A stretch of 40,500 bases of DNA from Candidatus Bathyarchaeia archaeon (GCA_035529355.1 DATKWX010000008.1:1-40500); one strand, 5' to 3'; counted from the stretch's first letter, positions 20,341 through 38,468 are shown. Notes: generated by a model not told the origin, from the sequence alone. Program-made: numbers and translations.

Positions 20341-21660
20341 ATGCCATTTAAGCGTCCGAAAAAAGAAGAAACCTTAGCCAAAAAAGCAGTCAAAAGAAAC
20401 TATCGTCTTTTTTTTAACAACCGGCTTATGACAATTTTACCCCGGTGGTGGGTAGGGACAGCAGAGATTTTGGGTTTAACGCTTCTTTTTTTGCTAAACT
20501 TCCTTTTGCTTTTGCCCTTTTTTGGCCAGGAAGATAAGTCTAATATTTTTTCTGCGCCCTTAATCCCGGTTTTAAGTAAACTGTTTTTTTTAATGTCTTT
20601 TCCCGTGGCAATTCGTTTTTGGTTGCTGTTTTTTATTCTTTTTCTGCCGGTTACGTTCTATTTTTTTGTCCGGGAGATTTCCGGCCGGAGAATAACGGCT
20701 TTTTTGGCCTCCTTGATTATTAGCTTGCCGTTGGGCATTTTTCTACCTTTAAGATTAAAACTGGCTCTTTTTACTGAAGACGGCAACCATATTGCTTCCT
20801 TGACTTTAGGCATTTTAGCTTGCTTGTTTTTGTTAAGATTTTTGCGCAGCGGTAATTTTAAAATGGGTGTAAGTTCCAGCTTACTTATAAGCCTGGTGGC
20901 TTTAACTTCGCCTTTGGGGTTGTTTATCCTCGGCTGTTTTAGCTTGGCGATTAGTTTTTCCGAGATGCTTTTAAGTCAAGGAAGATTAAAGTTTTTCCGT
21001 TTTTTAACGGTTTTTATGCTGGCTGCGGGATTAGTATCTTTTTGGTACAATCCCGGTTTTGTTTTTCTGATTGTTGCTTCACCCCAAGGAGAGTTGATAA
21101 AAGGAACTTTGGCCAGTTTGTTCCCTTTGTCCTTTTTTTTGGTGCCTTTGCTGGGCGCTTTCGGTTTTTTGCTTTTTGAAAACCGTCCTCGCCTCCAACC
21201 GCTTTTTTTAGCCGTGTTTTTAAGCATTGGTTTTGGCCTTTTGTCTTTAGGCGCTGGCATGCAACTTTCCAGCCCCTACCGTTTTTTGCCCAGTTTAGGG
21301 ATGGCTTTGGCCTTTTTAGGAAGCATTGTCCTGGCAAGAATTTTTGATTTTTTGAAAAGAAGGCGCAGTTTCCGGCAGTTTAGCGGCATAAGCCGATACA
21401 GAAAACAGATTTTGTTTTTCTCAATTACTTTGTTTTTTACCATCATTACTTCTATTATTATGGCTTCAGCTAAAAATTTCGGACAACTGGAGCAAGAAGA
21501 GGTTTTAGGCTTGGTTGACTCCAAAACAACGGGAATTTGGGAGGCTAGGAACGCTATTGGCTGGTTTCACCACATTATAGGTGGTAGCATTAGTTTTTCG
21601 ACCGCAGGTTTGCTTATCTTTATCAGAAAACAGCTTGCTAAGCAAAAAAATGAGGAATAA
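20341..21660 (+). CDS. polytopic integral membrane protein (possible polymerase/GT-C-like; unassigned)
   Basis: 439-aa ORF, hydrophobic throughout (more than 10 predicted helices) with a basic N-terminus. It is the first gene of a same-strand, overlapping gene string. Confidence 0.6.
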   Translation: MPFKRPKKEETLAKKAVKRNYRLFFNNRLMTILPRWWVGTAEILGLTLLFLLNFLLLLPFFGQEDKSNIFSAPLIPVLSKLFFLMSFPVAIRFWLLFFILFLPVTFYFFVREISGRRITAFLASLIISLPLGIFLPLRLKLALFTEDGNHIASLTLGILACLFLLRFLRSGNFKMGVSSSLLISLVALTSPLGLFILGCFSLAISFSEMLLSQGRLKFFRFLTVFMLAAGLVSFWYNPGFVFLIVASPQGELIKGTLASLFPLSFFLVPLLGAFGFLLFENRPRLQPLFLAVFLSIGFGLLSLGAGMQLSSPYRFLPSLGMALAFLGSIVLARIFDFLKRRRSFRQFSGISRYRKQILFFSITLFFTIITSIIMASAKNFGQLEQEEVLGLVDSKTTGIWEARNAIGWFHHIIGGSISFSTAGLLIFIRKQLAKQKNEE

Positions 21661-22657
21661 AGTTCTAATCATCGGCGGAGCTGGCTTTATCGGCGTTAAT
21701 TTAGCCGATTTTTATCTTAAAAATGGTTGGCAAGTGAGTTTAGTGGATAATCTCAGCCGTTTGGGTTCAAAGAAAAACTTGGACTGGCTTTTGAAAAAAT
21801 GGGGTAGTGGGTTTAAGTTTCAAAGAATAGACTTAGGTCAGCTTGAACAATTAAAAAACGAATTAGAAAAAGCTGACGTTGTTTTTCATTTAGCAGCTCA
21901 GGTGGCAGTAACCAGTTCCTTAAAAAATCCAGCTTTGGATTTTGAAGTTAACTTAAAGGGTAGTTTTGAGCTTTTGGAAATGGTTAGGAAATTAAAACGC
22001 AGGCCGGTTTTAATTTATGCCTCAACCAACAAAGTCTATGGTGATTTGAAAAATATTAAGATAAATGAAAAGGCTAAAAGGTATGTTTTTGGCGTCTCCT
22101 TCAAAGGAATTTCCGAAGACCAACCGCTTGATTTTCGTTCGCCCTATAGCTGTTCCAAAGGCGGAGCTGATGCCTATTTTCAGGATTATGGCCGTTTATT
22201 TGGTTTAAAAACCGTGGTTTTTCGCCAATCTTGTATTTACGGCCCTCATCAGTACGGCAACGAAGATCAAGGCTGGCTTAGTCATTTTCTGAAGCAGGCA
22301 ATTTCGGGCCTGCCGATTAGTATTTATGGTAATGGTAAGCAAGTTAGAGATGTTTTATGGATAGAAGATTTAATTGAGGCTTACGACTTGGCAGTTAGAA
22401 ACATTACTAAAGTTAAAGGAGAAGTTTTTAATATTGGTGGCGGCTATAAGAATAGCCTTTCTTTATTGGAGCTTACTGACATACTGGAAAAAAAGCTTGG
22501 GAAAAAGATTAGGCTTAAATTTGAAAAGGAGAGAGTAGCAGACCAAAAGATTTTTATCAGCGATAACCGCAAGTTGGAAAAGAGACTTGGTTGGCAGCCA
22601 GAGACCAGTTACACTCAAGGGATTGGAAGGATGCTAAAATGGCTAAAAGAAAGATAA
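21650..22657 (+). CDS. NAD-dependent sugar-nucleotide epimerase/dehydratase (extended SDR)
   Basis: Rossmann motif VLIIGGAGFIGVNL directly after ATG 21650. The ORF track begins at an upstream GTG at 21581. Also STNKVYGD and the YSCSK (YxxxK) catalytic motif. The start overlaps the stop of the previous gene. Confidence 0.8.
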   Translation: MRNKVLIIGGAGFIGVNLADFYLKNGWQVSLVDNLSRLGSKKNLDWLLKKWGSGFKFQRIDLGQLEQLKNELEKADVVFHLAAQVAVTSSLKNPALDFEVNLKGSFELLEMVRKLKRRPVLIYASTNKVYGDLKNIKINEKAKRYVFGVSFKGISEDQPLDFRSPYSCSKGGADAYFQDYGRLFGLKTVVFRQSCIYGPHQYGNEDQGWLSHFLKQAISGLPISIYGNGKQVRDVLWIEDLIEAYDLAVRNITKVKGEVFNIGGGYKNSLSLLELTDILEKKLGKKIRLKFEKERVADQKIFISDNRKLEKRLGWQPETSYTQGIGRMLKWLKER

Positions 22658-23877
22658 AAATTGCTGTTTTCCAATGTAGTTTTGTTTATTCCGGAGGTGG
22701 CGAAAGGATTGTTTTGGAGGAGGTTAAAGGGTTGCGGAAAAGGGGATATAAAGTCTTTTGCTGGGCGCCAGCTTTGGAGGAAAAAAAATCTTTTCCCGGA
22801 ATGATCAAAAAAGTTAAAGTTAAAACCTTTTTACCCCAACTGCCTTCCTGGTTTCCCGCAAGACATGCTTTTTCTATGATTGCCTCAAGCATCTTTGCTC
22901 CTTTTCTAAGCTGGCGTTTTAAAGATGTTGATCTTTTTTTGACCGCCGGCCAACCCAGTGCCTGGATTGCTTTTTGCTGCGCCAAAATTTTAGGCAAGCC
23001 CTATATTACTTACCTTAACCAGCCGAACCGCTTGCTTTACCAGCGCGAGGTAGACAAAGAGAGCCGGTGGCAAACAGAGAAAAGCTACTATTTTTTAAAC
23101 CGTGTCATTCAGAATTTCCGAAGTATAGTTAACATCCTTGATAAGATTTCTTTTCAAAAAGCAAACCAAATGCTTGTCAACGGCGCTTATATGGCTGGAG
23201 TAGTGGAACAAGTTTATCAGAGAAAACCGCAGCTTTGTCCGGCCGGCGCTTATCTTAAACCTTTTGCCAAGCTGAAGTTGAACCCGACGACCAATTATAA
23301 AGGTTTGCTAAAATTAGGCAGGGTTTTAATTCCGAAGCCATTTATCTTGATTACCAATCGGCATGAACCGCAAAAAAAGTTTGAATATGTAATCCAAGCC
23401 CTAAAGCGAGTTTTAGCAAAATATCCTCATGTTTTTTTAGTCATTCCCGGGCCGTTTACCAGCTATACACCAGGGCTGATTAGCCTGGCCAAAAAACTTA
23501 AGGTAGAGGAAAGAGTTTTGTTCTTAGGAGAAATTTCCGAAGCCAAACTGCAAAAACTTTATCAGCAGGCGGCCGTCTATTGTTATCCGGCGCCGGAAGA
23601 GGATTTTGGTTTAGGGCCATTGGAAGCTGGCGCTTGGGGGGTGCCCACAGTCGCTTGGAATAAAGCCGGACCGACAGTCACGGTCAAAAACGGAGTGACC
23701 GGTTTTTTAGTCAGGCCTTTTAAGGTTGGGGACTATGCGGAGAAAATAATAAGGTTGCTAAAAAATCCTAAGTTGCGGGCCAAAATGGGCAAAGCCAGCT
23801 GGCAAAGGGTAAAAAACCAGTTTGTTTGGGAGAAACATATTGATATCCTGGAAAAAGAAATAAAAAAATTAATCTAA
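22639..23877 (+). CDS. GT4-family (GT-B fold) glycosyltransferase
   Basis: The N-terminus KIAVFQCSFVYSGGGERIVLEE begins from ATG 22639 (the track starts at TTG 22591). E-x7-E motif EDFGLGPLE. It is a paralog of the 30376-31638 gene. Confidence 0.8.
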   Translation: MAKRKIKIAVFQCSFVYSGGGERIVLEEVKGLRKRGYKVFCWAPALEEKKSFPGMIKKVKVKTFLPQLPSWFPARHAFSMIASSIFAPFLSWRFKDVDLFLTAGQPSAWIAFCCAKILGKPYITYLNQPNRLLYQREVDKESRWQTEKSYYFLNRVIQNFRSIVNILDKISFQKANQMLVNGAYMAGVVEQVYQRKPQLCPAGAYLKPFAKLKLNPTTNYKGLLKLGRVLIPKPFILITNRHEPQKKFEYVIQALKRVLAKYPHVFLVIPGPFTSYTPGLISLAKKLKVEERVLFLGEISEAKLQKLYQQAAVYCYPAPEEDFGLGPLEAGAWGVPTVAWNKAGPTVTVKNGVTGFLVRPFKVGDYAEKIIRLLKNPKLRAKMGKASWQRVKNQFVWEKHIDILEKEIKKLI

Positions 23878-24089: not shown

Positions 24090-25712
24090 ATGAAAGAAAA
24101 AAATATTGAAGCTCTGAGGGTTAATAACCCTCAAGGCGTCGGTTTTTCGCGAAGGCGGAATAAAAAAACCGGGGTAAAAGAAGATTTAAAAAAGATGGGC
24201 ACGCTGTTATTATTGGTTTTTTTATTTATGATGGCTTTAGCACCGAGACTTTGGTTTATTTTCCGGATTAGCGAGCCGATTGACATTCCTATGTGGTACG
24301 GAGATGTTTTTCATCACTGGCAGATTGCTTATTTATCCAAAGAAATCGGTTTTAAACAAGGTTTTTTGCGGTTATGGGACTTAAAAGGGATGGAATTTTT
24401 TTGGGGTTTAATCCATCCTTTGGTTTTGGTAATTCTTTTTACCTTGACCGGTTCCAGCAATATTTTAGTGCCTCGATTGTTAAGCGTTGTTTGTGGTTCT
24501 TTAAACATTGTTCTTCTCTACCTGATTCTGAAAAGAGAATTTAATTGGCAGACCGGTTTGGCCGCGGCTATTTTGGCCAGCTTTTTTCCGATTACCCTTT
24601 TTTCCAATACCGTGGGAATGCAGGAGGAACTGGGGATGTTTTTTATTTTCTTGGGAATTTTCTTCTGGCCAAAAAGTCCTGCAGGAACAGGATTGCTTTT
24701 TGGTCTGGCGGCTATGGAAAGAACGGAGTATTGGTTATTTACTTGCGGTTTAGTGCTGGCGCTTATTTTAAGAAGCAAAAATTTTGACAAAAAAATAATC
24801 TTAGGCTTAAGTTATTTGGTGGTTAATTTGTTTTACATGAAGTATTTGGATTTCTGGACCGGCAATGCTATTTATCCTATTTATTGGAATTTTATTTCCT
24901 CCGTTAAAGGAGAATGGTTCGTGGAACTGCCGATTAATGGGGCTAAATTAGTTGCCCAGCAGATTAACAGGGTTGTTTTCTTTTTTGGCCTAATTGGTGG
25001 ACTTTTGACTTTCTGGAAAAAACCAAAAGGCTTTTTATTGCTGTTGTTTGGTTTCAGCAATCTGGTTTTTATCGGCTTTATGCTCGGTTTTGGCGCTTAT
25101 GTCAAGGGTTTTGCGCCGCGGGTTTGGACGGACAGGCTTTTTAACTGGCCTTACCTCTTTAGCCTGATTTTGATATTAATTTTTTTGTTTTGGGTAGTAC
25201 CAAATAAAGCTCGGTTTTGGGCAAAAATCAAACTTAACTGGCTGATTTTTTTTGGGATTTTGGTTCTTTCCTGGCAATTATGGCAGCCGATAATTTATTT
25301 TTGGAATGATGTTGGCAAGTTTAATTATGAAGCGGAAAAGGAAAAAGCGGGAATGATTGCTAAACATTATCAAAAAGGAAGTGTTTTAATTCCGGAAGAT
25401 AGACCAATTTTAACTTATTTTTTAACTAACGATTTTGCTATAAAAGGAGAAAATATAAGAGGCCAGATGTTTGACCCTTTTTTTTATGCTAAAACTGAAC
25501 CTTTAGATAATTGGGGAGAGTTTAGAAAAGAATTTAGGGATTGGTTAGAAACACAGAAAATAGAACTTTTATTTATCAGTAGTGGTGAACATAGAGCCTT
25601 ATACCAACAAGCGGCTTTAAAAGAACCGGATTGGTTTGAATTATTGGAGGAAAAAGAAGGAAGCAAGGTTTATCGCGTTATTTTACCTCCGGATAGCCAG
25701 AGTTTTGATTAA
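24090..25712 (+). CDS. polytopic membrane protein with C-terminal soluble domain (ArnT/PMT-like GT-C candidate)
   Basis: 540 aa with a basic N-terminus, about 11 hydrophobic helices and a hydrophilic C-terminal domain of about 130 aa. A strong SD precedes it. The family call is by architecture only. Confidence 0.55.
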   Translation: MKEKNIEALRVNNPQGVGFSRRRNKKTGVKEDLKKMGTLLLLVFLFMMALAPRLWFIFRISEPIDIPMWYGDVFHHWQIAYLSKEIGFKQGFLRLWDLKGMEFFWGLIHPLVLVILFTLTGSSNILVPRLLSVVCGSLNIVLLYLILKREFNWQTGLAAAILASFFPITLFSNTVGMQEELGMFFIFLGIFFWPKSPAGTGLLFGLAAMERTEYWLFTCGLVLALILRSKNFDKKIILGLSYLVVNLFYMKYLDFWTGNAIYPIYWNFISSVKGEWFVELPINGAKLVAQQINRVVFFFGLIGGLLTFWKKPKGFLLLLFGFSNLVFIGFMLGFGAYVKGFAPRVWTDRLFNWPYLFSLILILIFLFWVVPNKARFWAKIKLNWLIFFGILVLSWQLWQPIIYFWNDVGKFNYEAEKEKAGMIAKHYQKGSVLIPEDRPILTYFLTNDFAIKGENIRGQMFDPFFYAKTEPLDNWGEFRKEFRDWLETQKIELLFISSGEHRALYQQAALKEPDWFELLEEKEGSKVYRVILPPDSQSFD

Positions 25713-26583: not shown

Positions 26584-27395
26584 TGATAAATACTCAAAAT
26601 AAAGTTTTCGGTTTAGGAAAAGTAAGCACCAAACCTTGGGTAATTCCCGCCTTAGGTATTAAGTATTGTTTTAATGATCTGAAAGGACGTTTTAAAAAAG
26701 GTGACCAGGTTTTGGATATCGGTTGCGGCGGCGGTTCATTGACTAAGTTTTTTAAGAAAAGATTTCCTCAGATTAAAGTGTGGGGTTGTGATCTAGATAA
26801 GATGGCAATTAGAACAGCCAAGGAAAATTGTGAAGGCGTAAAGTTTGTGGCTGGAAATATATTGAATTTACCGTTTAAAGATAAAGAGTTTAAAGTAGTA
26901 ATAGGGTTTCATATCTGGGAACATTTAACTGATTTGGAGAAAGCAGCCCAAGAAATAGGAAGAATTCTTAGAAAAGACGGGATTTTTCATTTAGCAGTGC
27001 CGATTGAGGGTGATTTTTGGACTTTACACGGTTGGTTGACGAAACTTGGTTGGCAGGCAAAAAAAAAGTTCTGCGGCCATATTCACTATTTCAGTAGAAA
27101 TAAGTTGATCGTTGATTTGGAAAAACAAGGCTTTAAATTAATAAAAAAAAGGAATTCAGGTTATCTTCTTTTCCAATTAGCCGATGTGATTTTTTTTGCT
27201 TTGGCAACTTTGAGGAAAAAGGCTTTTGCCTGGACAGTTGAAGGTTATTTGGAAAAAGGAAAAAAGAATTTGAAATATTATTTAACCTTGTTTTTAAGGA
27301 TAATTTTCGCTTTATTAACTTATACAGAAAGTCGGATTTTCCGCTTTATACCAGGATATATTTGTCATCTTACTTTTGTAAAAAAGAGAAAATGA
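26583..27395 (+). CDS. class I SAM-dependent methyltransferase
   Basis: Motif I VLDIGCGGGSL and FHIWEHL. ATG 26583 overlaps the previous TGA (TGATG). The track start at 26580 is a TTG. Confidence 0.8.
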   Translation: MINTQNKVFGLGKVSTKPWVIPALGIKYCFNDLKGRFKKGDQVLDIGCGGGSLTKFFKKRFPQIKVWGCDLDKMAIRTAKENCEGVKFVAGNILNLPFKDKEFKVVIGFHIWEHLTDLEKAAQEIGRILRKDGIFHLAVPIEGDFWTLHGWLTKLGWQAKKKFCGHIHYFSRNKLIVDLEKQGFKLIKKRNSGYLLFQLADVIFFALATLRKKAFAWTVEGYLEKGKKNLKYYLTLFLRIIFALLTYTESRIFRFIPGYICHLTFVKKRK

Positions 27396-28558
27396 AAATC
27401 TTAATTATTCAGCCCTGGATTAAACAGGGTGGGGCAGAGAACATCAGTGTCTATCTTGCCTACTATTTAAAAAAAAGAGGCGAGGAGGTGAAGATTACTG
27501 CTCTTTTTACTGACTTGAAGAAAAGTCCACCTATAGCCTCTCAAGTTGATTATCTTTTACCTAATAAGAGATTAAGTCAGTTATTCAAGAAAAGCAAGCT
27601 CTTTTTTTTACTCTTTGGGCCTTTAGTTTTGTTCTGGCTTACTTTTATTCATTCCAAGGAAGTAGGGCTTTTGAATCCTCATAATTTTCCTTCTTGCTGG
27701 GTAGCAGTTTTAGTGGGAAAACTACGTCGAGTCCCCGTGGTTTGGCACTGTCATGAACCTCCCACTAGAATTTCTTTTAAAGAAGCTAAAAGCCTGGGTT
27801 GGCTTGATTTTTTGGGATGGTTTTTTGCCTCTAGTTTAGTTGATAAACTATTGGTAAAGGGTGTGAAAAAGATTATCGTTCCCTCAAAAAAAACTCAGAA
27901 AGAAGTTAAACAAAGATATGGAAGAAGTTCCCGAGTGATTAATTTGGGAGTTGATTTTAATTTTTATCAACAGAGAGGTAGGGAAAAACTAAAGTGTAGA
28001 TATAATTTAAGTAATAAGTTTATTCTTATTAATGTTGGTAAACTTAGTCCACAGAAGAATCAGGTTGTTTGTTTAGAAGCTTTTAAGCTAGTTTCTAAGC
28101 AGATTTCAGAAGGCATTTTAGTTTTAATCGGTGAAGGGCAGGATAGAAAAAGACTTAGGGCTTTAATCAGAAACAAATCATCTTCCGGCCGGAAAAATTG
28201 GAGAGTTTTTTTTACAGGTTTTCTCTCTCCTGAAGAGGTAAGAAACTGGTATCAGGTAGCCGACATTAATCTATTTTCGCCTGTAAATCAAAGTTGGGGC
28301 TTTACGCCAATTGAGGCTTTATGCTGTCGAGTAGTTTCTATTGTATCAGATGACTGCGGAGTGGCCTCGGTTTTAAAAAAAGAAAGAATTGGTCTTGTTT
28401 GCCCGGCTAAAGCAAAACCCTTTGCCGAAAATATTATAAGGGTTTATAGGCAAAGAAGTAAATTCGAGCAAATGGGTCAAAAGGGACATCTTTGGGTGAA
28501 GAAAAATTTAACCTGGGAAGAGTATGCAGAAAAAACCCTGCAAGTAATTACTGGTTAA
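27392..28558 (+). CDS. GT4-family glycosyltransferase
   Basis: MKILIIQPWIKQGGAENIS begins from ATG 27392, an ATGA overlap with the previous stop (the track starts at TTG 27362). GKLSPQKN, and a C-terminal GFTPIEAL segment at the EX7E position. Confidence 0.8.
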   Translation: MKILIIQPWIKQGGAENISVYLAYYLKKRGEEVKITALFTDLKKSPPIASQVDYLLPNKRLSQLFKKSKLFFLLFGPLVLFWLTFIHSKEVGLLNPHNFPSCWVAVLVGKLRRVPVVWHCHEPPTRISFKEAKSLGWLDFLGWFFASSLVDKLLVKGVKKIIVPSKKTQKEVKQRYGRSSRVINLGVDFNFYQQRGREKLKCRYNLSNKFILINVGKLSPQKNQVVCLEAFKLVSKQISEGILVLIGEGQDRKRLRALIRNKSSSGRKNWRVFFTGFLSPEEVRNWYQVADINLFSPVNQSWGFTPIEALCCRVVSIVSDDCGVASVLKKERIGLVCPAKAKPFAENIIRVYRQRSKFEQMGQKGHLWVKKNLTWEEYAEKTLQVITG

Positions 28559-28562
28559 TCTT

Positions 28563-30371
28563 ATGAAAATGAAAAAAGTCAGCGTTATCATTCCTATTAC
28601 CAGAGAAAAACTAGTACTAAAGACAACAAAATCTGTCCGAAAACAGGACTATCCCGAATTGGAGATCGTAAAGGTCAAAGCCAAAAGACTAAACCCTGCT
28701 CAGGCTCGGAACAAAGGGGTTCAAAAAGCCAAAGGTGAGATTTTGCTTTTTTTAGACGATGATTGTCAGGTACGGAAAGGTTGGATAAAGGAAAATCTAA
28801 AAGCATTGGCTGGTGATAAAATTGGCGCTGTTGGAGCCAAAATTGAAGGTAAATCAGAGAAATATTGGGCCAAAGTGGCTGATTTTGCCAACTTCACTTT
28901 TACTCAAGCTGATAAGAAAAGGGAGATGCCTCTTTGCGCCGCCAGCTTGGGAATAAGAAAAGAAGTTTTTAAAAAACTGGGGGGATTTGACGAAAGTTTA
29001 ATCATTGGCGAGGATGTTGATTTGTGTTTTCGTTTAAATCGGCTGGGACTGAAAACACTTTATGAGCCGAAAATTAAAGTCTGGCATGAGCATAAAAGAG
29101 AGAGTTTACTTGCACTTTTAAGATATCAATACAGCAATGGGAAGGTAAAAGGTCTCACAATTGAAAAGCGCTATCCCGACAACTTCTGGTTTATTTTTTT
29201 AAAAACAATTGCCAGACCTTGGTTTTATTGGATTTTTGTTTTACCTTTTGCTGTTTTAGCTACCTTGATAGCCGTAGGAGTCAATTGGCAGGACAGACTA
29301 GAGGTTTTTTATTTAATTCCCGGAATTTTTTCAGCCAAATTAGCCTGTCAGCTGGGAATTTTGGCAAACTTAATTTCTCATCGAAATCACAGACTGCGTT
29401 ATTTGACTCTTTTTGTAACCAATCAATGCAATCTTCATTGTCGGCATTGTTTTTATTGGCAAGTAATAAAAAGGCAAAAAAAAGAATTGAGCCTTAGGCA
29501 GATTGAGGCCTTAAGTCACGATTTAGGGAAGTTAAAACTACTATCAATCAGCGGCGGCGAACCCTTTTTACGTTCAGATTTAGCTGACATTATTCAACCA
29601 TTTGTGGCCAATAATAGGTTGAGAGTAGTTTCTATTGTTACCAATGGTAGTTTGCCCGGGAAGATTCAAAAAGAAGTGGAAAAAATCCTTAAAATCTCCA
29701 GCAGGTTGTTGGTGGTGGTTTGTCTTTCGGTTGACGGCACTGAAAAAATACATGACAAAATAAGAGGCTTTAAAGGTTCATTTAAAAAAATGGTCAAGAC
29801 ACATCGGAGATTGAGGCTTTTGAAGGAAAAATATAAAAATCTAAGAATCCGCCAGAATGCGACCGTCTTTAACTTAAATTATAAAAATCTTTATCGGCTG
29901 ATTGGTCAAGCACCTAAGCTTTTTCCCGACAATTACCTTTTTTCTTTATCTTTGCTTCGGGGTAGACCGAGAGACAAAGACTTAAAACTACCCGCCGTGG
30001 ATAAGCTTAAGAAGCTTTTTGCTTATAAAAATAAACGGCTTAAAGGAAATAGAAGTTGGTTGAGCAGGTTGGTGGAAAAAATAGTTTTTAGGGCTCAAAT
30101 CAAAACTTTAACTATTAAAAAGCAGATTATCCCTTGCCAGGCAGGGAAATTAATGGCCGTGATTTTAGAGGACGGTCGAGTGGCTCCTTGTGAACTTTTA
30201 ACTCCGGTCGGCAATATTAAAAAGCAGTCTTTTAATGAAATTTGGCAGGGGAAAAAGATGCAAGATGCCAGAAAAAGAATTTCTCAGGGAAAATGTTTTT
30301 GTACTCAGGAAGGATTTTTATATCTTAGTTTATTAAACCAACCCTTAGCGTTGTTAAATTTGTTTAGATAG
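28563..30371 (+). CDS. fusion protein: GT2 glycosyltransferase - TM helices - radical SAM/SPASM domain
   Basis: N-terminus VSVIIPITRE...LLFLDDDCQV (GT2, DxD). TM helices at about aa 205-275. CNLHCRHC (CxxxCxxC, 29427-29450) with SISGGEPFL. The C-terminal Cys-rich segment IPCQAGK...VAPCE...GKCFC is of SPASM/twitch type. Confidence 0.8.
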   Translation: MKMKKVSVIIPITREKLVLKTTKSVRKQDYPELEIVKVKAKRLNPAQARNKGVQKAKGEILLFLDDDCQVRKGWIKENLKALAGDKIGAVGAKIEGKSEKYWAKVADFANFTFTQADKKREMPLCAASLGIRKEVFKKLGGFDESLIIGEDVDLCFRLNRLGLKTLYEPKIKVWHEHKRESLLALLRYQYSNGKVKGLTIEKRYPDNFWFIFLKTIARPWFYWIFVLPFAVLATLIAVGVNWQDRLEVFYLIPGIFSAKLACQLGILANLISHRNHRLRYLTLFVTNQCNLHCRHCFYWQVIKRQKKELSLRQIEALSHDLGKLKLLSISGGEPFLRSDLADIIQPFVANNRLRVVSIVTNGSLPGKIQKEVEKILKISSRLLVVVCLSVDGTEKIHDKIRGFKGSFKKMVKTHRRLRLLKEKYKNLRIRQNATVFNLNYKNLYRLIGQAPKLFPDNYLFSLSLLRGRPRDKDLKLPAVDKLKKLFAYKNKRLKGNRSWLSRLVEKIVFRAQIKTLTIKKQIIPCQAGKLMAVILEDGRVAPCELLTPVGNIKKQSFNEIWQGKKMQDARKRISQGKCFCTQEGFLYLSLLNQPLALLNLFR

Positions 30372-30375
30372 ATTA

Positions 30376-31638
30376 ATGCCTGAAAAGAAATTAAAAATTG
30401 CTTTTTTTCATTTCGGCTTCTTTTACGAGGGAGGTGGTGAGCGTTTGCTTTTGGAACAAATGAGAGGTTTAGAACAAAGAGGTCATAAGGTAGTTTGTTT
30501 TACCCCGATTTATGAACCTAAAGTTTGCTATCCGGACTGGATTGGACAGTTTAAAATTAGAACCTTAGTACCACAATGGTTAACCTGGTTCCCGGATGGT
30601 TTAATAATTCAGATGCTAACTTCAAGCTGGCTGATTATATTCCAGTTTTGGCGGTTTTTTAAATTTGATGTTCTTGTGGGAATCGGCCAACCCGGAGCCT
30701 GGATGGCCTTTTGTTTAAGCAGGATTTTAGGAAAGCCTTATTTAGTTTGGATGAACCAGCCAACCAGGTTTTTATATCCCAGGAAAATTGACCATAAAGA
30801 AGGCCTAAGGATTAGCGATAAAAAGAGCCTATCCACGACAATTATCAATATCTTAAAACCACTAATATCATACTTGGATAAAATAAGTGTAAGCCGGGCA
30901 GATGTTTTAATGTGTAACAGCAGAATCATTGCTCGGTGGTTGAGCAGGATTTACAAAAGAAAAGTGGTTCAGAATTATCCCGGAGCAAATTTAGGTTTTC
31001 CTAAGAAAGATTTTACTTGGCAGGATTATAAAAAAAGGCTTAAAGGAGAATCGAGAGTGAAAACAAAGATAATTAAAAAACCTTTTCTTTTGGTAAGCAA
31101 CCGTCATTTTCCCCAAAAAAGATTTGAATATGCGATTGGCATCATGCCTTTTTTAATTGACAAAATACCTGGTTTAAACCTGGTGATTACCGGCGGAGAA
31201 AACAATTATACCAAGTCATTGAAGACTCTGGTTTACCAGTTGGGCTTGCGGCAAAGAGTGGTTTTTACCGGTTCAGTAGCAGAAAAAGAATTAAGCAGAC
31301 TTTATCAACAAACAGTAGTTTATCTTTATACTGCTCCTCAGGAAGATTTTGGGATGGGAATCGTAGAGGCAATGGCTCATGGAATACCTGTGGTAGCCTG
31401 GGAAAATGCCGGACCAGGGGAAATTGTGATTAATGGCCAGACTGGTTTTTTGATCAAGCCTTACGATTTAGTTGATTTTGGAAAAAAAGCGCTCGAACTT
31501 TTGACAAATAAGAAATTGAATAAAAAAATGGGACAGGCCGGTTTTAGCCGAGTGGAAGAAAAGTTTACTTGGAAAAGGCACATTGACATGCTGGAACTTA
31601 AGATAAATCGTTGTAAAGAAAAATGCAGCTTAAGTTAA
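30376..31638 (+). CDS. GT4-family glycosyltransferase (paralog of 22639-23877)
   Basis: KIAFFHFGFFYEGGGERLLLEQ, E-x7-E motif EDFGMGIVE, and the same overall layout as the 22639 gene. Confidence 0.8.
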   Translation: MPEKKLKIAFFHFGFFYEGGGERLLLEQMRGLEQRGHKVVCFTPIYEPKVCYPDWIGQFKIRTLVPQWLTWFPDGLIIQMLTSSWLIIFQFWRFFKFDVLVGIGQPGAWMAFCLSRILGKPYLVWMNQPTRFLYPRKIDHKEGLRISDKKSLSTTIINILKPLISYLDKISVSRADVLMCNSRIIARWLSRIYKRKVVQNYPGANLGFPKKDFTWQDYKKRLKGESRVKTKIIKKPFLLVSNRHFPQKRFEYAIGIMPFLIDKIPGLNLVITGGENNYTKSLKTLVYQLGLRQRVVFTGSVAEKELSRLYQQTVVYLYTAPQEDFGMGIVEAMAHGIPVVAWENAGPGEIVINGQTGFLIKPYDLVDFGKKALELLTNKKLNKKMGQAGFSRVEEKFTWKRHIDMLELKINRCKEKCSLS

Positions 31639-33162: not shown

Positions 33163-36100
33163 ATGATAAAAAGTGTTTTAAAATTTTTTGGCTGGTTACT
33201 CGTCTCGTTAATTGTTTATTTGGAGAGGTTTATTTTTTTAATTTTTAGTTTAAGCTTATTTTTTATTATTACTTTATTTTTTGGTCATGGATTTTTGACA
33301 AGCGAAGACTTGCTGGGGAATGATATTTACAATGTTTTTTCTCATATTAACTGGATCAACCGCTATTTTCCCAAGATTCCCTTTTGGTACCCAGTTGAAG
33401 GAACAGGAACTTCCCTGCAGTATGGCTATCCGATTCTTAGCCATCTAATTACTGTTTTTGCTTCCCGATTATTTGGCTTATCAATTATTGAGAGTTTTCG
33501 CTGGCTGGGATTTTTGTCAATTTTTTTAACCGGAGCAGGCATTTATTTCTATGGTTGGTTAAGGCTTAAATCTCAAATAATTGGTTTAATGGCAGGCTTT
33601 TTTTATTTAGTTTCAACAATCGCTTATTGCTGGCTTTTTCAATTTGGTTTTTATGCTGAAAGCATAGGCTTGGTATTTATGCCTTGGGCAATTATTTGTT
33701 TTGAATTTTTCTTGGAAAAATTACAGAAGAAGCAGGGGAAAGCATTTTTTTGGCTATTTTTAAGTGCCTTGCTTTGGGGGATGGCGTTCTTTTGCCATTA
33801 TGTTCTTGGCATCGGTTTACTGACTTATTTTTTCTTTTTAACCATAAATTCTTTTTGGAAAAAGAGGAAACTTTCAAGAAAAAGGATAAAAAGAGGAATT
33901 TTGGCAATTTTAATTTTTGGCTTGGCGATTTTTGGCCTATGGAGTTTTAGATTTATACCTTCGGCAAGATTTTTAATGATTGCTGACCGTGAAGGCTTGG
34001 AAACCAAGCATTCTTTTGAGCAGCTTGACTACAGCGCCCCTCAATTAAAAACACTTTTCGCTATGGTAGCACCAATACTGGAAACAGAAGAGTTTAAAGA
34101 TGCTGATTATTTTTGGAAAGAATACCATTTTGTTTTACCGGTAATTTTGCTTTTTTTCCTCGGTTCTTTAGTTTGCTTATTTATTCCAAATCTTAGGTTA
34201 TTTGTTATTTTTTCATGGTGGGCATTTATAATTTTTTCCTTACCTCATCTGCGTTATTTTTTGATGAAAAAATTGCCTTTTGGCCTTTTTTTCTTTTTTG
34301 ATATCCGGACGTTTTTTAGTGTCGTAAGATTAATGATTCCTATAGTGACTGGAGCAGGAATATGGAAGTTGCTAACTGGAGTTCATGAATTAGTGGTCAG
34401 GATTTTTACGGGTAAAAGAAAGAAAAGCTGGTCGGAGAGACTGATTAAAGAAACTATGGCACTTCCTTTACTGCTGGGATTACTGATGTTTTTGTTTTAT
34501 TTTGGCCGTAAACTGCCTGAGGACCCTTCTTGGGTTTTGCGTTATGGCTGGAATAGCCTTGGTGAACGTGGAGCTTTTGATTTGCGGGACATTTGGCATA
34601 AAAGAAACGATGACATTTGCCCTCTTAGTATTGAAGGAAAGAAAGAATTGGAGGAAAAACTTTGTCAATTTCCTCAAGTAAGGAGCAAGTTTAATGTAAT
34701 TGAATTAAGCACTTTTTGTGTGCAAGAAAGAGATGCCCAAAAAGAATTGCCTGATTTTTGTTTAGCGGAAAGGATTGATCAGCAAACAGTTGATCAGCTT
34801 TTAGAGTGGTGTGATAAAAGCCCTGATTCTGTTTATTGCCAAGCAAGATTTGACAGCCCGGCTGTGCAGATTGCTAAATTCCTGCCTGAACTAAAACTAA
34901 ACAGGCAAGTTAATTTTTTAGAAGAGCAAGAACGAGGTTTTTTAAAAAATTTAAAAGAGCAAGAAGTAAATCGCTATGATGTTTCTCCAAAACTAGCCAG
35001 ATTTATTAACGGCAGCACTTATTATACTGATGTTTCTAGGTTTACTTTTTCTACGCATCAGCTTTCTTTAAATCATAGTTTTTGGAGTTATTTGCAGGGA
35101 CTTTATTATACTGATGATCCAGTTAATCGTACTCCCGGAGTGGTGGAGGAATTAGCCAAATGGTTTGGAATTAAAAAGGTTTTTTTAAATATAGATGATC
35201 CGATTGAAAATTTTGATGGAAATTTTTGGTTTAAGGATGATGAAACATCCAAGCTGGTAAGCCTAAAAACAAAGGAAGCTTTAAAATTGGCTGTTTTAAG
35301 CAATCGGCCGACCTTTTTGGTAATCGGCGATTTTAAAAAAGGAGTTCTTCATGACCTTTTTAAGTTATCAAATAGAGGGGTTCTTCCTTATGATGATTTT
35401 TGGTTGGTAGAAGGAAGTAAAAATGTTGATGATTATAGTTTAAATGAGCTTAAGAATTTTGACGGATTAATCTTGCACGGTTATGGTTATAAAAGCCGGC
35501 AAAGGGGATGGGAAAGGTTGGATCAATATATAAAAGAAGGAGGATTAGTTTTTCTTAATGCTGGTTGGCAATATACAGTGCCTGATTGGGAAATGGAAGA
35601 GGCACCGAAATTTTTACCGGTTAAGCAAACAAAATGGACTGATTACGGCAAAACAGGCGATTTTTTAGTTAATGAAAATCTTTTAGGAAAAGGAGTAGAA
35701 GAGGATAAATTTGCAGATTTAGTTTGGGATGGAAAACCATGGAGCGTTTCTGGAGTAAAATCAAATGATTTAAGAGATTGGGCTCAAATAATACTTTCAT
35801 TTAAAGACAATCCTTTAATGGTAGGAGGTAATTACGGAAAAGGAAAGGTGATTTGGTCTGGAGTAAATCTTTTGGCTCATGCTTTGGAAAATAAAAATGA
35901 AGAAGAAATAAAATTTTTAGGAACGGTATTTAAGTGGTTGGCAAAAGATAAAGAAAAAAAAGATGTTGACTTGGAAATTTTAAGGTCAAATCCAGATAAG
36001 GTAGAGTTTATTTTTCATGGTGACCTAAAAAGGGGTTGGTTGTTGTGGAAAGAAGCTTATTTTACTGATTGGCGGGCAAAGATTTATCAAAATGGCGAGG

Positions 36101-36390
36101 TAGAGAAAATTAAAATTTACCGTGGTGGACCTAGCCTTATGATTATGCCTCTTAAAGAAATTAAAGAAGGTGATAGATTGAAGCTTTATTATCAAGAGCC
36201 GGTTTTATTTAAGTTTTTAAAAATTTTAGCAGTAATGACTTTTTTAGTTCTTTTTACTTTGATGTTTGGCTGTGGGCGAAAGTTTAGTAGATCAGCTATA
36301 GCGAGGTTAAGCAGACTTAGGCCAAAAAGTTTAAACTTTAACTTTTTTAAAAGTTTAAAAGAAAAATGGGGGAAAGAAGAAGATTATTAA
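33163..36390 (+). CDS. large polytopic membrane protein with about 550-aa extracytoplasmic domain and C-terminal TM (GT-C/YfhO-like candidate)
   Basis: 1075 aa with about 13 N-terminal helices, a long hydrophilic domain and a terminal helix (ILAVMTFLVLFTLMF) followed by a basic tail. The family call is by architecture only. Confidence 0.6.
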   Translation: MIKSVLKFFGWLLVSLIVYLERFIFLIFSLSLFFIITLFFGHGFLTSEDLLGNDIYNVFSHINWINRYFPKIPFWYPVEGTGTSLQYGYPILSHLITVFASRLFGLSIIESFRWLGFLSIFLTGAGIYFYGWLRLKSQIIGLMAGFFYLVSTIAYCWLFQFGFYAESIGLVFMPWAIICFEFFLEKLQKKQGKAFFWLFLSALLWGMAFFCHYVLGIGLLTYFFFLTINSFWKKRKLSRKRIKRGILAILIFGLAIFGLWSFRFIPSARFLMIADREGLETKHSFEQLDYSAPQLKTLFAMVAPILETEEFKDADYFWKEYHFVLPVILLFFLGSLVCLFIPNLRLFVIFSWWAFIIFSLPHLRYFLMKKLPFGLFFFFDIRTFFSVVRLMIPIVTGAGIWKLLTGVHELVVRIFTGKRKKSWSERLIKETMALPLLLGLLMFLFYFGRKLPEDPSWVLRYGWNSLGERGAFDLRDIWHKRNDDICPLSIEGKKELEEKLCQFPQVRSKFNVIELSTFCVQERDAQKELPDFCLAERIDQQTVDQLLEWCDKSPDSVYCQARFDSPAVQIAKFLPELKLNRQVNFLEEQERGFLKNLKEQEVNRYDVSPKLARFINGSTYYTDVSRFTFSTHQLSLNHSFWSYLQGLYYTDDPVNRTPGVVEELAKWFGIKKVFLNIDDPIENFDGNFWFKDDETSKLVSLKTKEALKLAVLSNRPTFLVIGDFKKGVLHDLFKLSNRGVLPYDDFWLVEGSKNVDDYSLNELKNFDGLILHGYGYKSRQRGWERLDQYIKEGGLVFLNAGWQYTVPDWEMEEAPKFLPVKQTKWTDYGKTGDFLVNENLLGKGVEEDKFADLVWDGKPWSVSGVKSNDLRDWAQIILSFKDNPLMVGGNYGKGKVIWSGVNLLAHALENKNEEEIKFLGTVFKWLAKDKEKKDVDLEILRSNPDKVEFIFHGDLKRGWLLWKEAYFTDWRAKIYQNGEVEKIKIYRGGPSLMIMPLKEIKEGDRLKLYYQEPVLFKFLKILAVMTFLVLFTLMFGCGRKFSRSAIARLSRLRPKSLNFNFFKSLKEKWGKEEDY

Positions 36391-37535
36391 AAAAGCCAAT
36401 TTTAGCTGTTATTAGAGGCTTAGGGCCAAGAATGGCCCAAATTTATTTTTATAGCCAATTTAAGCATTTTCAGATTAGGCTGATTGCTAATAGTTTTCCG
36501 AAAGAAGCAGACAAGTTTAAAACTAAGATTGAGTTTATTAAGCTGGGGTTAAAACCTTTTTACGGTTTTGACCCTTTCAGTTTAAAGGGAGTTAATCATC
36601 GCTCCTGGGTGGGATTTGACGGCTTAGAAAAGTGTTTAAAAGATGTTAAGGTAATAGAAACCCTTACTAGTTTTTATTTTTATTCTCGGCAGGCGGCGAT
36701 TTTGGCTGAGAAACTTCATAAACCTTTAGTAGTGAGTATTTGGGAAATTAATCCCTTTCATCCCGCCACTTGGTTGCCTCCTTATTGTTTTAATGTACGA
36801 AAGGTCTTGCGTCAGGGAGACTTGTTTATTTTAAAGAGTAAAAAATCAGGCGAGTTTTTAGACAGATTTAAAATAGAAGAAAAAAGAAGAAAGCAAATCT
36901 ACATGGGGATTGATTTAAAGCTTTTTAAACCTGGGAAAGGAGGAGGGGGCAGCCGAATTTTGTATGTTGGCCGTTTGGTTAAATCAAAAGGAGTAGAAGA
37001 TTTAATTGAAGCTTTTAGGATTCTGAGCATGAGAAGGAGGGAAACCGAGCTTTGGTTAGTGGGTGAAGGACCGTTAAAGGAAAGATTAAAAAAATTGACC
37101 CGGGGGTTACCGGTTAAAGTTTTGGGAAGATTGAGTTATAAAAAAATGCCGGCTTTATATCAAAAAGCAGACTTAGTTTGCTTGCCCAGCAAAACTGGTA
37201 GATACTTTGGTCTTATAAAAAGAGAAGAAATGTTTCCCTATGTAGGAATGGAAGCAATGGCCAGTGGTTTAGCGGTGGTAGGTACCAGAACAGGAGGGAT
37301 TCCTGAAGCAGTTGGCCCGGCAAATACTTTAGTAAAAGCAGGTGATATTAAGGCTTTGGTAAAAGGAATAGAAAAATTTTTAAGCAATAAAGTTCTAAGA
37401 AGAAAAACAGGGATGTTAAATAGAAAATTCGCTTTAAAGAACTATGACCTGAAACGACAAGCCAGAAAAACAGAGGAAGCAATTTTGGCCTTATTGTCTG
37501 CGCCAAAGCGGGAGGAAGTGAAGAAGACGCCTTAA
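36366..37535 (+). CDS. GT4-family glycosyltransferase
   Basis: VGRLVKSKGVEDLIEAF and E-x7-E motif EMFPYVGME, followed by AMASGLAVVGTRTGGIPE. The start overlaps the previous gene. Confidence 0.75.
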   Translation: MGERRRLLKKPILAVIRGLGPRMAQIYFYSQFKHFQIRLIANSFPKEADKFKTKIEFIKLGLKPFYGFDPFSLKGVNHRSWVGFDGLEKCLKDVKVIETLTSFYFYSRQAAILAEKLHKPLVVSIWEINPFHPATWLPPYCFNVRKVLRQGDLFILKSKKSGEFLDRFKIEEKRRKQIYMGIDLKLFKPGKGGGGSRILYVGRLVKSKGVEDLIEAFRILSMRRRETELWLVGEGPLKERLKKLTRGLPVKVLGRLSYKKMPALYQKADLVCLPSKTGRYFGLIKREEMFPYVGMEAMASGLAVVGTRTGGIPEAVGPANTLVKAGDIKALVKGIEKFLSNKVLRRKTGMLNRKFALKNYDLKRQARKTEEAILALLSAPKREEVKKTP

Positions 37536-38468
37536 TTGGGGAACAGCCTTTTTTATAGTCAGTTCAGGAAAAAAAGATATAGCAATCGTACTAAGCAAAG
37601 AAGGTTGAGAAAGAGTACAGGAGCGGCAAAGAGGTTTCAACCGGCGTTTCTTAAAACTGGCGCGCAGATTCTGCCAGACTGGACCATTCCAGATAGCTTG
37701 AAAAGACTGATTTTTAATATTGCCGAGTTTGAAGCGGCAATTTGTATCCAAACAACAGGGATAGACTTCTCCCTGCCAACTGACCAAAAAAGTGCGCCAA
37801 GGAGAAAGGCAATACAAAGGCTTGCTGGATCTATTTTTTATATTAGTTGTCTGCGTTACTGGTTTAATATAGACAATAGAGGCGCGTTTATTGCTCCAGT
37901 ATTTTTTAAAATCAGCGACTTCGTTTTGATTTAGTTCCTGTTTAACGAGCTGAATAACGGTGAAGCTGGGTGAGCCTTTTTCTTGAGCCTTTTTCAAAAA
38001 GTAAGCAACATTCTTCCGCACCTGAGTAAAATTGCCTCCGCGCCTGATTTTTTGGTAGGTTTTAGCATTAAAGGCATCAATGGCAAAAATAAGATGGTCA
38101 GGGGGGTGGTTAATTAGTTGTTCCGTCATTTTCTTGTCCAAAATAGTAGCATTAGTAGAAAGAGCAACCGGGACGCCTTTTTGGTGGCAGTAGTCAATCA
38201 TCTTAAACAAAAAAGGGCATAACAAAGGTTCCCCCCGGCCGTATAAACCGTACATTTCCGCTGTAGAACAGGTTTGATCGATAATTTTGGTAAATAATTT
38301 CCAGCTCATATGTCCAAGATGCCGAGTCATTTCCTGGCGAGCGCACATTACACAATTCAGATTGCAGTGATTAGTTATTTCAATGCCGACTTCTACCGGA
38401 CCGTGAGAGGCGTAGGGATATTGGTTTAGAAAGTTATTTAGTAGTTTGAGACGATTAATAAAAGACAT
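37491..38468 (-). CDS. radical SAM protein with C-terminal SPASM-type domain
   Basis: ITNHCNLNCVMC (CxxxCxxC) near the N-terminus and GRGEPLL. C-terminal cysteines in CLSPW...YPCCLD...CRSC. Confidence 0.8.
   Translation of the reverse strand: MSFINRLKLLNNFLNQYPYASHGPVEVGIEITNHCNLNCVMCARQEMTRHLGHMSWKLFTKIIDQTCSTAEMYGLYGRGEPLLCPFLFKMIDYCHQKGVPVALSTNATILDKKMTEQLINHPPDHLIFAIDAFNAKTYQKIRRGGNFTQVRKNVAYFLKKAQEKGSPSFTVIQLVKQELNQNEVADFKKYWSNKRASIVYIKPVTQTTNIKNRSSKPLYCLSPWRTFLVSWQGEVYPCCLDTNCRFKLGNIKNQSFQAIWNGPVWQNLRASFKKRRLKPLCRSCTLSQPSLLSTIAISFFPELTIKKAVPQLRRLLHFLPLWRRQ

Follow-up and report, generated by a model that had tools for sequence, protein, structure and literature searches.

A membrane-anchored family 2 glycosyltransferase fused to a radical SAM enzyme in an exosortase-linked glycan cassette

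The radical S-adenosylmethionine (SAM) superfamily is versatile, and its members that tailor sugars are known from soluble antibiotic pathways. In BtrN, anSME and SkfB, a fully Cys-ligated auxiliary cluster accepts the electrons of a net two-electron oxidation. In SkfB, the maturase of the sporulation killing factor, about 100 N-terminal residues form a peptide-recognition domain, and the enzyme is encoded beside its precursor peptide in an operon for a peptide that is made on the ribosome and modified after translation (RiPP). PcManGT is a membrane glycosyltransferase of family 2 (GT2) with a minimal cellulose-synthase-like fold. We know of no radical SAM enzyme that has been assigned to the membrane steps of bacterial or archaeal surface glycan assembly. 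ArnC/ArnD/ArnT and DprE1/E2 are examples of systems in which donors are edited after they have been linked to lipid. In three-component systems, too, auxiliary enzymes such as epimerases edit lipid-linked donors before these are used by a GT-C glycosyltransferase (PMC11127046). Here we describe a single gene that joins a membrane GT2 to a radical SAM enzyme. It occupies positions 28563..30371 of a stretch of 40,500 nucleotides (nt) from Candidatus Bathyarchaeia archaeon (GCA_035529355.1, DATKWX010000008.1:1-40500); this whole stretch is called the window below. Counted from the first letter of the window, the gene and its parts are as follows (aa, amino acids; TM, transmembrane).

28563..30371, plus strand: GT2-TM-radical SAM/twitch fusion gene, 602 aa plus stop, an uninterrupted ATG-to-stop open reading frame
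28563..29102, plus strand: GT2 catalytic domain of the GT-A fold, residues 1 to ~180 (PF00535, PF13641, PF13632; Foldseek matches to GT-A folds)
29106..29390, plus strand: membrane module of interface helices, TM1 and TM2 (hydropathy, AlphaFold2 model, match to PcManGT 6yv7)
29400..29972, plus strand: radical SAM core, residues ~280-470 (PF04055, E=4e-16)
nt 29427-29450, plus strand: CX3CX2C motif, residues 289-296, within the radical SAM core
30120..30368, plus strand: twitch-type auxiliary Fe-S domain, residues ~520-602 (PF13186, E=1e-10)

The described system closest to the radical SAM half is SkfB (6efn), which shares with it the CX3CX2C motif and a four-Cys twitch (C...G....C, then CxC) with no fifth Cys. 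However, the two are only ~21% identical, the SkfB match starts at chain residue 108, and the window protein has neither a peptide-recognition domain nor a RiPP operon, but is tethered to a membrane GT2 among sugar genes. The twitch dehydrogenase BtrN, the cytosylglucuronate decarboxylase BlsE, viperin and DesII share the radical SAM barrel, with or without a twitch, and, judged from gene context, plausibly the carbohydrate class of substrate. Unlike the fusion protein, they are each soluble and stand alone, in pathways to antibiotic or antiviral small molecules and with no membrane glycosyltransferase partner, and their sequence scores (35-55 bits) are well under that of SkfB. For the GT2 half, PcManGT (Pyrobaculum calidifontis, 6yv7) and cellulose-synthase-like GT2s are similar in fold and in the DXD and ED motifs, but PcManGT is ~18% identical and lacks a C-terminal enzyme domain. 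In the mycofactocin pathway the same two enzyme classes, MftF and MftC, cooperate; the window, in contrast, has no mftA, mftB, mftD or mftE, and its context is that of polysaccharide or glycoprotein assembly. The GT136 systems (PMC11127046), ArnC/ArnD/ArnT, and DprE1/E2 with Emb/Aft resemble the loci described here, where a membrane GT2-type enzyme is encoded together with a GT-C and with candidate flippases. None of these has been described with a radical SAM tailoring enzyme, however, and the window GT2 is not demonstrably a polyprenyl-phosphate glycosyltransferase.

Full-text literature searches returned no paper on the GT2-radical SAM architecture or on its cassette, and no curated family. 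The RadicalSAM.org paper has no mention of GT2-radical SAM fusions, and the Geobacter papers list unrelated genes only. Names of the two-domain proteins in public databases are generic, for example 'radical SAM protein' or 'MoaA/NifB/PqqE/SkfB family radical SAM enzyme/GT2 family glycosyltransferase', and none of the 96 NCBIfam matches of the fusion protein, in either half, reaches its curated cut-off. Thus both superfamilies are known, and for their combination, in which a membrane glycosyltransferase of surface-glycan assembly has a twitch radical SAM enzyme as its tethered or paired partner, we found neither a paper nor a curated family.

A preliminary description of the window, made from its sequence alone, had read the gene as one open reading frame with three parts. 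Pfam, the motifs and a confident AlphaFold2 (AF2) model of the whole protein as one body (pLDDT 95.5, pTM 0.81) bear this out. All Pfam matches of the 602-aa protein exceed their gathering thresholds: GT2 models span residues ~5-240 (Glycos_transf_2, PF00535, 58.8 bits against a cut-off of 23.3; Glyco_tranf_2_3, PF13641, 51.2 bits; PF13632, 28.8 bits), Radical_SAM (PF04055) covers residues 285-418 with 60 bits against 29.5, and SPASM (PF13186) covers residues 525-578 with 42.2 bits. The motifs that had been singled out are in place. The GT2 part has VSVIIP and, at residues 64-68, LDDDC, which contains the DDD and supplies D65 and D67 of the DXD; it also carries E150-D151 and H175. The radical SAM part has CNLHCRHC (C289-X3-C293-X2-C296) and GGEPFL (residues 331-336, with GGEP at 331-334). 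N50, D67, D151 and H175 are invariant in 54 homologues, and D65 and E150 are nearly so, while C289, C293, C296 and G331-P334 show no variation among 24 fusion homologues. Judged from these residues, both catalytic domains keep what is invariant in their families. The first half thus combines a GT-A fold, a DXD motif and the catalytic acidic residue of GT2 enzymes (54 sequences and Foldseek). The second combines the CX3CX2C motif, a score over the curated threshold, a partial TIM-barrel fold and the GGE motif of the radical SAM superfamily, with a Foldseek probability of 1.00 against SkfB, anSME, MoaA and viperin. The radical SAM domain is intact, and profile searches and Foldseek agree on a radical SAM twitch/SPASM fold for the C-terminal half.

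The possibility that a sequencing or assembly error had joined two adjacent genes had also been raised. Such an artefact would be in line with the closest stand-alone homologues (56-66% identical), which are separate GT2 and radical SAM genes in Patescibacteria-type contigs. However, at least three independent datasets (ENA, Logan, JGI) contain the gene, on 10 contigs that all encode the identical 602 aa, and the three loci that were fetched show 0 nt differences over the 1809-nt gene and 1 kb on each side. A protein that is 68% identical (P0002, 617 aa) has the same continuous layout, and diverged fusions number in the dozens: at ~40% identity, more than 35 proteins of 665-712 aa align over 98-100% of the query, and P0065 is fused in the reverse order, radical SAM first and GT2 second. 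In the split relatives, moreover, the halves are parted by inserted opposite-strand genes, with no frameshift. Sequencing or assembly error is excluded. The GC content of the fusion gene is in line with that of the neighbouring genes.

Pairing of the two domains recurs well beyond the window. When 1.84 billion 50%-identity representatives were searched exhaustively, 886 clusters (50% identity) matched the query at E<=1e-30, including those that match one half only. About 37 of the best 150 representatives are two-domain proteins of 560-780 aa; the remainder are stand-alone radical SAM (~350 aa) or GT2 (~290 aa) proteins. A scan of one genome per species found more than 580 relatives, all in metagenome-assembled genomes (MAGs) or single-cell assemblies, from Patescibacteria, Omnitrophota, Planctomycetota, Acidobacteriota, Chloroflexota, Spirochaetota and DPANN archaea, and also from Proteobacteria, including SAR11 and Halieaceae. 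From these relatives, 80 species-representative loci were kept for counting. The radical SAM homologue is fused to this type of GT2 in 4 of the 80; in 33 it is the immediate neighbour of one on the same strand (17 GT2-first, 16 radical SAM-first), and in 14 more a GT2 lies within 4 kb. Thus, the fusion recurs across diverged genomes: GT2 and radical SAM genes have been fused repeatedly and in both orders, and their coupling is genuine and recurrent. That such fusions arose repeatedly and independently in both orders, and that adjacency is conserved, strongly indicates that the two domains share an intermediate or work on successive ones.

In the nearest Patescibacteria-type relatives, whose radical SAM protein is 56-66% identical, the GT2 (220-272 aa) and the radical SAM protein (348 aa) are encoded by separate genes with one or two opposite-strand genes between them. 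The inserted genes encode a B12-binding radical SAM protein (~460 aa) and, in locus L007, also a radical SAM/SPASM protein (321 aa). Up to three radical SAM enzymes thus cluster in one glycan cassette of these relatives. The split regions are:

L006 4300-7573: split GT2/radical SAM region, Patescibacteria-type relative
L007 4958-9047: split GT2/radical SAM region, Patescibacteria-type relative

The C-terminal domain has just four Cys downstream of the radical SAM core, C525, C543, C578 and C580. They form a C525-X12-G538-X4-C543 hairpin followed by C578-X-C580, they are invariant in the family together with G538, and they align with the CTPG...C and CKC twitch motifs of SkfB. These features, a CX9-15GX4C hairpin and further Cys for one cluster, are those of the twitch subfamily, and BtrN matches the twitch region in the profile search described below. 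We conclude that, as far as sequence can tell, the domain is of the one-cluster twitch type, with four Cys ligands available for a predicted cluster. A full seven-Cys SPASM domain (CX9-15GX4C-gap-CX2CX5CX3C-gap-C) was considered and rejected, because there are four Cys and the second block is CXC; Pfam SPASM still matches because twitch domains are truncated SPASM domains. Of the 'Cys-rich SPASM/twitch-like' C-terminus in the preliminary description, the twitch was right and a complete SPASM was not. The second Cys block reads CxCx3C in most relatives and CXC in the window protein: the fifth family Cys (CxCTHEC) is a Gly at residue 584 (nt 30312-30314). P0002 also has Gly here, and a few others, for example P0051, P0060 and P0062, lack the fifth Cys too, which nearly all family members keep. 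A subset of close relatives has an extra Cys, C387, instead.

In a profile search of the radical SAM half against solved structures, SkfB was by far the best match (E=9e-27, 97 bits), spanning the whole domain (positions 19-327). It was followed by CteB, MoaA, viperins, GDGT-MAS (core only), anSME, SuiB, BlsE, PqqE, YydG and BtrN. Foldseek with the full model gave SkfB (E=6.5e-13), SuiB, CteB, anSME, BlsE (TMt 0.68), MoaA and viperin-like enzymes (TMt up to 0.70). Radical SAM enzymes that act on sugars had been cited as precedents; the nearest characterised relative of this domain is instead a peptide-modifying enzyme, and not a sugar-active one such as BtrN.

Between the two catalytic domains, AF2 places amphipathic interface helices at residues 182-215, and then TM1 at ~219-241 and TM2 at ~252-276 with a short loop between them. 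Kyte-Doolittle hydropathy likewise gives a strong segment at ~218-243 and a weaker one at ~248-270. The membrane helices of the preliminary description are thus confirmed, and their number, given there as two to three, is refined to two. In the model, TM2 continues directly into strand 1 of the radical SAM barrel (280-286), which begins at residue 280, 4 residues past TM2. Two TM helices place both catalytic domains on one side of the membrane, and this side must be the cytoplasm because nucleotide sugars, SAM and reductant are found there.

A separate model of residues 1-278 (pLDDT 95.4) is closest in Foldseek to PcManGT (6yv7), membrane helices included (E=6.8e-11, TMq 0.64), and next to ppGalNAc-transferases and hyaluronan synthase (HAS). 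A PcManGT-like membrane GT2 fits a membrane-embedded acceptor. The layout of a GT-A domain, interface helices and two TM helices also fits polyprenyl-phosphate glycosyltransferases of the GtrB/DPMS/ArnC type, but the 50 top Foldseek matches include neither GtrB nor DPMS, and a sequence search of the Protein Data Bank gave matches to the DXD region only. The best-scoring named GT2 family is MftF (101.7 bits against a cut-off of 280, E=4e-29).

The fusion gene sits in a cassette of about ten genes, and in one locus the window combines an exosortase, proteins with PEP-like-TM-basic tails, and GT4, GT2 and GT-C glycosyltransferases. Anaerolineales contigs whose fusion protein is 41% identical (P0011, named as from an Anaerolineales bacterium, is encoded on L001-L003) carry the same cassette at 30-57% identity. 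Gene order is also the same, except that one GT4 has moved: counterparts of the window GT4 at 27362..28558 sit directly downstream of the fusion gene. The Anaerolineales cassette includes a giant protein whose C-terminus consists of VPEY or LPEI followed by a TM segment and basic residues, and a ~1100-aa membrane protein that is 30-32% identical to the 1075-aa one of the window. The nearest Patescibacteria-type relatives carry the same cassette with the halves separate. Thus, in the lineage of the window, the fusion is embedded in an exosortase-linked cassette that is common to Patescibacteria-type and Chloroflexota genomes.

Elsewhere the pair is found among other sugar genes. A planctomycete locus has UDP-glucose dehydrogenase, an RmlD-like reductase, a second GT2, an epimerase, a TylC3-type sugar C-methyltransferase and a nucleotidyltransferase. 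In an Omnitrophota locus the fusion is accompanied by a PMT_2 GT-C protein, a DUF362-ferredoxin protein, a GT2 and GT4s, and a compact SAR11 locus has a PMT_2 GT-C protein, a GT2, the radical SAM gene and a GT2-TM homologue amid housekeeping genes. GT-C genes lie beside the pair in Omnitrophota, SAR11, Anaerolineales and Acidobacteriota, and Wzx flippases do so in others. When ten polytopic neighbours were sampled, Pfam identified two as GT-C (PMT_2, GT87), three as Wzx-type (one of them weakly) and one as a tetratricopeptide repeat membrane protein, and four matched no family. Linkage to GT-C genes is thus recurrent, and is confirmed in a minority of the loci. All neighbourhoods examined have glycan-biosynthesis surroundings, and none contains a RiPP cluster.

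DUF362 proteins occur near the GT2/radical SAM pair in several loci (L011 5769-6809, L025 7717-8919, L068, L069, L071), which come from Planctomycetota-type genomes (including Sedimentisphaerales and Brocadiaceae), Omnitrophota and Acidobacteriota (Solibacteraceae). One of them has a 4Fe-4S ferredoxin domain. These proteins could be a dedicated electron donor of the radical SAM enzyme.

Based on these results, we propose that the fusion protein is membrane-anchored and bifunctional and belongs to a pathway for lipid-linked cell-surface glycans, its radical SAM domain tailoring the sugar handled by the GT2. We give this proposal a probability of about one half. A lipid-linked pathway is suggested by the membrane GT2, by the cytoplasmic placement of both domains, and by the company of GT4s, flippases and GT-C proteins. 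From the fusion and its gene context we infer, as the preliminary description had, that a nascent or lipid-linked glycan undergoes radical chemistry; which acceptor is used, which of the two reactions comes first, what kind of radical chemistry takes place and where the product ends up are parts of the proposal that follows.

Both catalytic domains would face the cytoplasm, anchored by two TM helices and the amphipathic interface helices. The GT2 would be a minimal cellulose-synthase-like membrane glycosyltransferase that moves a sugar from a nucleotide sugar to a membrane-embedded acceptor, which may be polyprenyl phosphate or a polyprenyl-linked oligosaccharide. The radical SAM domain would then cleave SAM at the CX3CX2C cluster and take a hydrogen atom from the lipid-linked sugar, with the single, fully Cys-ligated twitch cluster as the putative electron outlet. 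Given the precedent of such auxiliary clusters in two-electron oxidations, oxidation of a sugar C-H/C-OH, with or without reduction to an epimer, is favoured over a redox-neutral rearrangement; the likeliest reaction would therefore be a two-electron oxidation or an epimerisation-type tailoring. The product could be extended by the neighbouring GT4s and methyltransferases, flipped, and used outside by the co-conserved GT-C protein, and its final target may be a polymer or the exosortase-sorted giant proteins. A narrower version of this proposal is that the radical SAM enzyme edits a polyprenyl-phosphate-linked sugar, which then serves as the donor for an extracytoplasmic GT-C, and that this arrangement is widespread (Patescibacteria-type bacteria, DPANN archaea, Chloroflexota, Omnitrophota, Acidobacteriota and SAR11). 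We regard this version as possible, but tentative.

The radical step could also precede transfer. The radical SAM enzyme would then act on the nucleotide-sugar donor by dehydration, deoxygenation, decarboxylation or epimerisation, as viperin, DesII and BlsE do with their substrates, and the tethered GT2 would transfer the unstable or rare product directly, so that the fusion would serve substrate channelling. Viperin-like enzymes and BlsE, whose substrates are nucleotides or nucleoside sugars, are indeed among the structural (TMt 0.66-0.70) and profile matches; UDP-glucose dehydrogenase, RmlD-like, NTP transferase and 4,6-dehydratase-like genes accompany the pair; and the stand-alone homologues of ~350 aa have no TM helices, so the radical SAM enzyme can act in soluble form. 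Yet this order leaves unexplained why the partner is always a membrane GT2 and never a soluble glycosyltransferase. The similarity to viperin is limited to the common barrel, moreover, and viperin and DesII lack the twitch domain that is conserved here. We therefore consider action on the nucleotide sugar rather unlikely, and rate a radical step after transfer somewhat higher than one before it because the partner is always a membrane GT2 and because editing of lipid-linked donors has precedent.

The similarity to SkfB, which outscores every other characterised relative by a wide margin (97 bits across the whole domain), raises the question of a peptide or protein substrate. In that case the radical SAM domain would form a thioether or other cross-link and the GT2 would then glycosylate the product, compare MftC and MftF, with the exosortase substrates or a small peptide as candidates. 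MftF is the best named match of the GT2, MftC also scores, and the cassette holds an exosortase and proteins with PEP-CTERM-like tails. However, the barrel begins directly behind TM2, with no RiPP recognition element (RRE) or other peptide-binding extension. The 4-nt gaps to the two flanking GT4 genes leave no space for a precursor peptide, and the Anaerolineales loci likewise have no small open reading frame beside the fusion. The MftF and MftC scores are far under their cut-offs (for MftC, 64.7 against 265), no other mft genes are present, and more distant loci keep the pair with sugar genes in the absence of an exosortase. Accordingly, a RiPP maturase of the sactisynthase kind (SkfB, AlbA, CteB) was rejected for want of an RRE and of space for a precursor gene, and a mycofactocin system (TIGR03965, TIGR03962) for its scores and the lack of mft neighbours. 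Despite the likeness to SkfB, a peptide substrate is thus disfavoured, and we hold it to be improbable. More improbable still is that the radical SAM domain modifies the lipid of a glycolipid made by the GT2, by cross-linking, methylation or cyclisation, compare tetraether synthase and the hopanoid enzymes HpnI and HpnJ. The enzyme is membrane-tethered, the Glyco_tranf_2_3/Glyco_transf_21-like type includes lipid glycosyltransferases, and the tetraether synthase GDGT-MAS (7tol) is among the profile matches (E=8e-14). But the 7tol match covers only ~85 residues around the SAM cluster, the neighbourhoods examined contain no lipid-biosynthesis genes, and the HpnI and HpnJ models are not among the top family matches.

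Several points weigh against tailoring of a lipid-linked sugar. No characterised member of the family was found. The nearest characterised radical SAM relative is a peptide thioether synthase, and BlsE and BtrN score far lower. GtrB and DPMS are absent from the Foldseek top 50 of the GT2 part, so that a polyprenyl-phosphate monosaccharide product is not specifically supported. Searches with hidden Markov models and jackhmmer found GT-C relatives in 7 to 9 loci only, and the full cassette is confined to the closest relatives. The short-chain dehydrogenase/reductase (SDR) of the cassette resembles nucleotide-sugar 4,6-dehydratases and fits tailoring at the nucleotide-sugar level equally well. 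Finally, if the fifth Cys is catalytic, the lineage of the window protein and P0002 may act differently from the rest of the family.

If the proposed editing of a lipid-linked sugar is correct, no radical SAM enzyme would have been placed in lipid-linked cell-surface glycan assembly before this one. Such editing would be a counterpart to donor editing of the DprE1/E2 or ArnD type that depends on neither oxygen nor flavin. A radical step on a lipid-linked sugar would be a new reaction class in glycan assembly and would help to explain the surface sugars of uncultured anaerobes. If a nucleotide sugar is tailored instead, the enzymes would still form a new sugar-modifying radical SAM family. The module is large and is spread across many phyla, among them Patescibacteria-type bacteria and DPANN archaea with their reduced genomes. 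The fusion and the conserved adjacency offer a testable start: one polypeptide, two activities and defined partner genes.

The other genes of the cassette and its surroundings in the window are as follows.

3556..4101, plus strand: exosortase/archaeosortase-family membrane protein, 181 aa (TIGR04178, 33.1 bits against a cut-off of 23)
7196..15637, plus strand: giant protein of 2813 aa (partial NCBIfam matches; VPEY-TM-KKRKK tail)
15981..19595, plus strand: 1204-aa paralogue of the same layout (IPER-TM-KKKREK tail; 45% identical to the L004 gene)
19616-20275: IS200-like Y1 transposase-family open reading frame, 219 aa (C-terminal two-thirds of the Pfam model matched)
21581..22657, plus strand: SDR resembling NDP-sugar dehydratases/epimerases (PF16363, PF01370)
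22591..23877, plus strand: GT4 glycosyltransferase (Pfam; counterparts 54-58% identical)
24090..25712, plus strand: GT-C-like polytopic membrane glycosyltransferase, PMT_2 (PF13231, 30.7 bits against 26.1)
25738-26583 and 26580-27395, plus strand: two class I SAM methyltransferases (Pfam; counterparts 33-37% identical)
27362..28558, plus strand: GT4, 4 nt before the fusion gene (Pfam; counterparts 40-44% identical)
30376..31638, plus strand: GT4, 4 nt after the fusion gene (Pfam; counterparts 40-45% identical)
33163..36390, plus strand: polytopic membrane protein of 1075 aa with ~11 hydrophobic segments (counterparts 30-36% identical in L001-L004 and L006)
36366-37535: GT4, in the same-strand run
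37491..38468, minus strand: second radical SAM/SPASM gene (PF04055, PF13186)
38514..40013, minus strand: GT2-methyltransferase fusion (PF00535, PF08241), directly upstream of the second radical SAM gene

The exosortase reaches the cut-off of no named Xrt subtype and shares 36-38% identity with the Exosortase_EpsH genes in the Anaerolineales cassettes. A polytopic protein of 478 aa (4279-5715), which matches no family, follows it, and upstream of it lies a glycoside hydrolase of the GH39 family (1906-3300), which has a TM anchor at its N-terminus. A GH39 copy that is 66% identical is found at 20154-20969 of L085, a MAG contig labelled Pseudomonadales. As this contig also has relatives of three other window genes, the bin label is doubtful. 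We found no description of exosortase systems in Patescibacteria-type genomes.

Both giant proteins have an N-terminal transposase-type helix-turn-helix, TM helices, a CesA/PgaC-like GT2 domain and a tail resembling a sorting signal, and the GT2 region of the 2813-aa protein is 44% identical to the first gene of L004. The architecture is odd in that a processive-type glycosyltransferase carries a sorting signal together with a DNA-binding-like N-terminus. The exosortase and these PEP-CTERM-like giants may bear on what exosortase systems attach their substrates to. The transposase-family open reading frame stands between the giant proteins and the glycan cassette.

Within the cassette, the best NCBIfam match of the SDR is dTDP-glucose 4,6-dehydratase (179 bits, under the cut-off); counterparts that are 47-53% identical are found in L001-L003 and L007, and none was matched in L004 or L005. 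The GT-C-like protein gives a weak match to archaeal STT3 and has counterparts that are 40-44% identical. Neither Pfam nor NCBIfam gives a match for the 1075-aa protein. Further methyltransferases lie after the GT4 at 30376-31638. One of them, read from the ATG at 32568 (~32350-33152), lacks its N-terminus; the SAM-binding motif LDLGCGAG is present in frame upstream but cut off by a stop codon, and what may be an N-terminal part lies in another frame. It is probably a frameshifted or decaying paralogue of the methyltransferase at 26580-27395.

The second stand-alone radical SAM/SPASM gene of the preliminary description is present at 37491-38468, on the minus strand, and its 3' end overlaps the convergent GT4 at 36366-37535 by 45 nt. 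A recent duplication of the fused domain was rejected as its origin, since the two match by BLASTP over just 81 residues at 28% identity. Its best model is the maturase of a tungsten-cofactor oxidoreductase, far under the cut-off. An orthologue that is 61% identical lies beside the split GT2 and radical SAM genes in L007, and orthologue-level matches occur in 11 loci, mostly of Acidobacteriota. Together with the GT2-methyltransferase fusion at 38514-40013, whose GT2 half weakly resembles the arsenosugar-pathway glycosyltransferase family TIGR04283, this gene makes up a second GT2-plus-radical SAM module on the opposite strand of the window.

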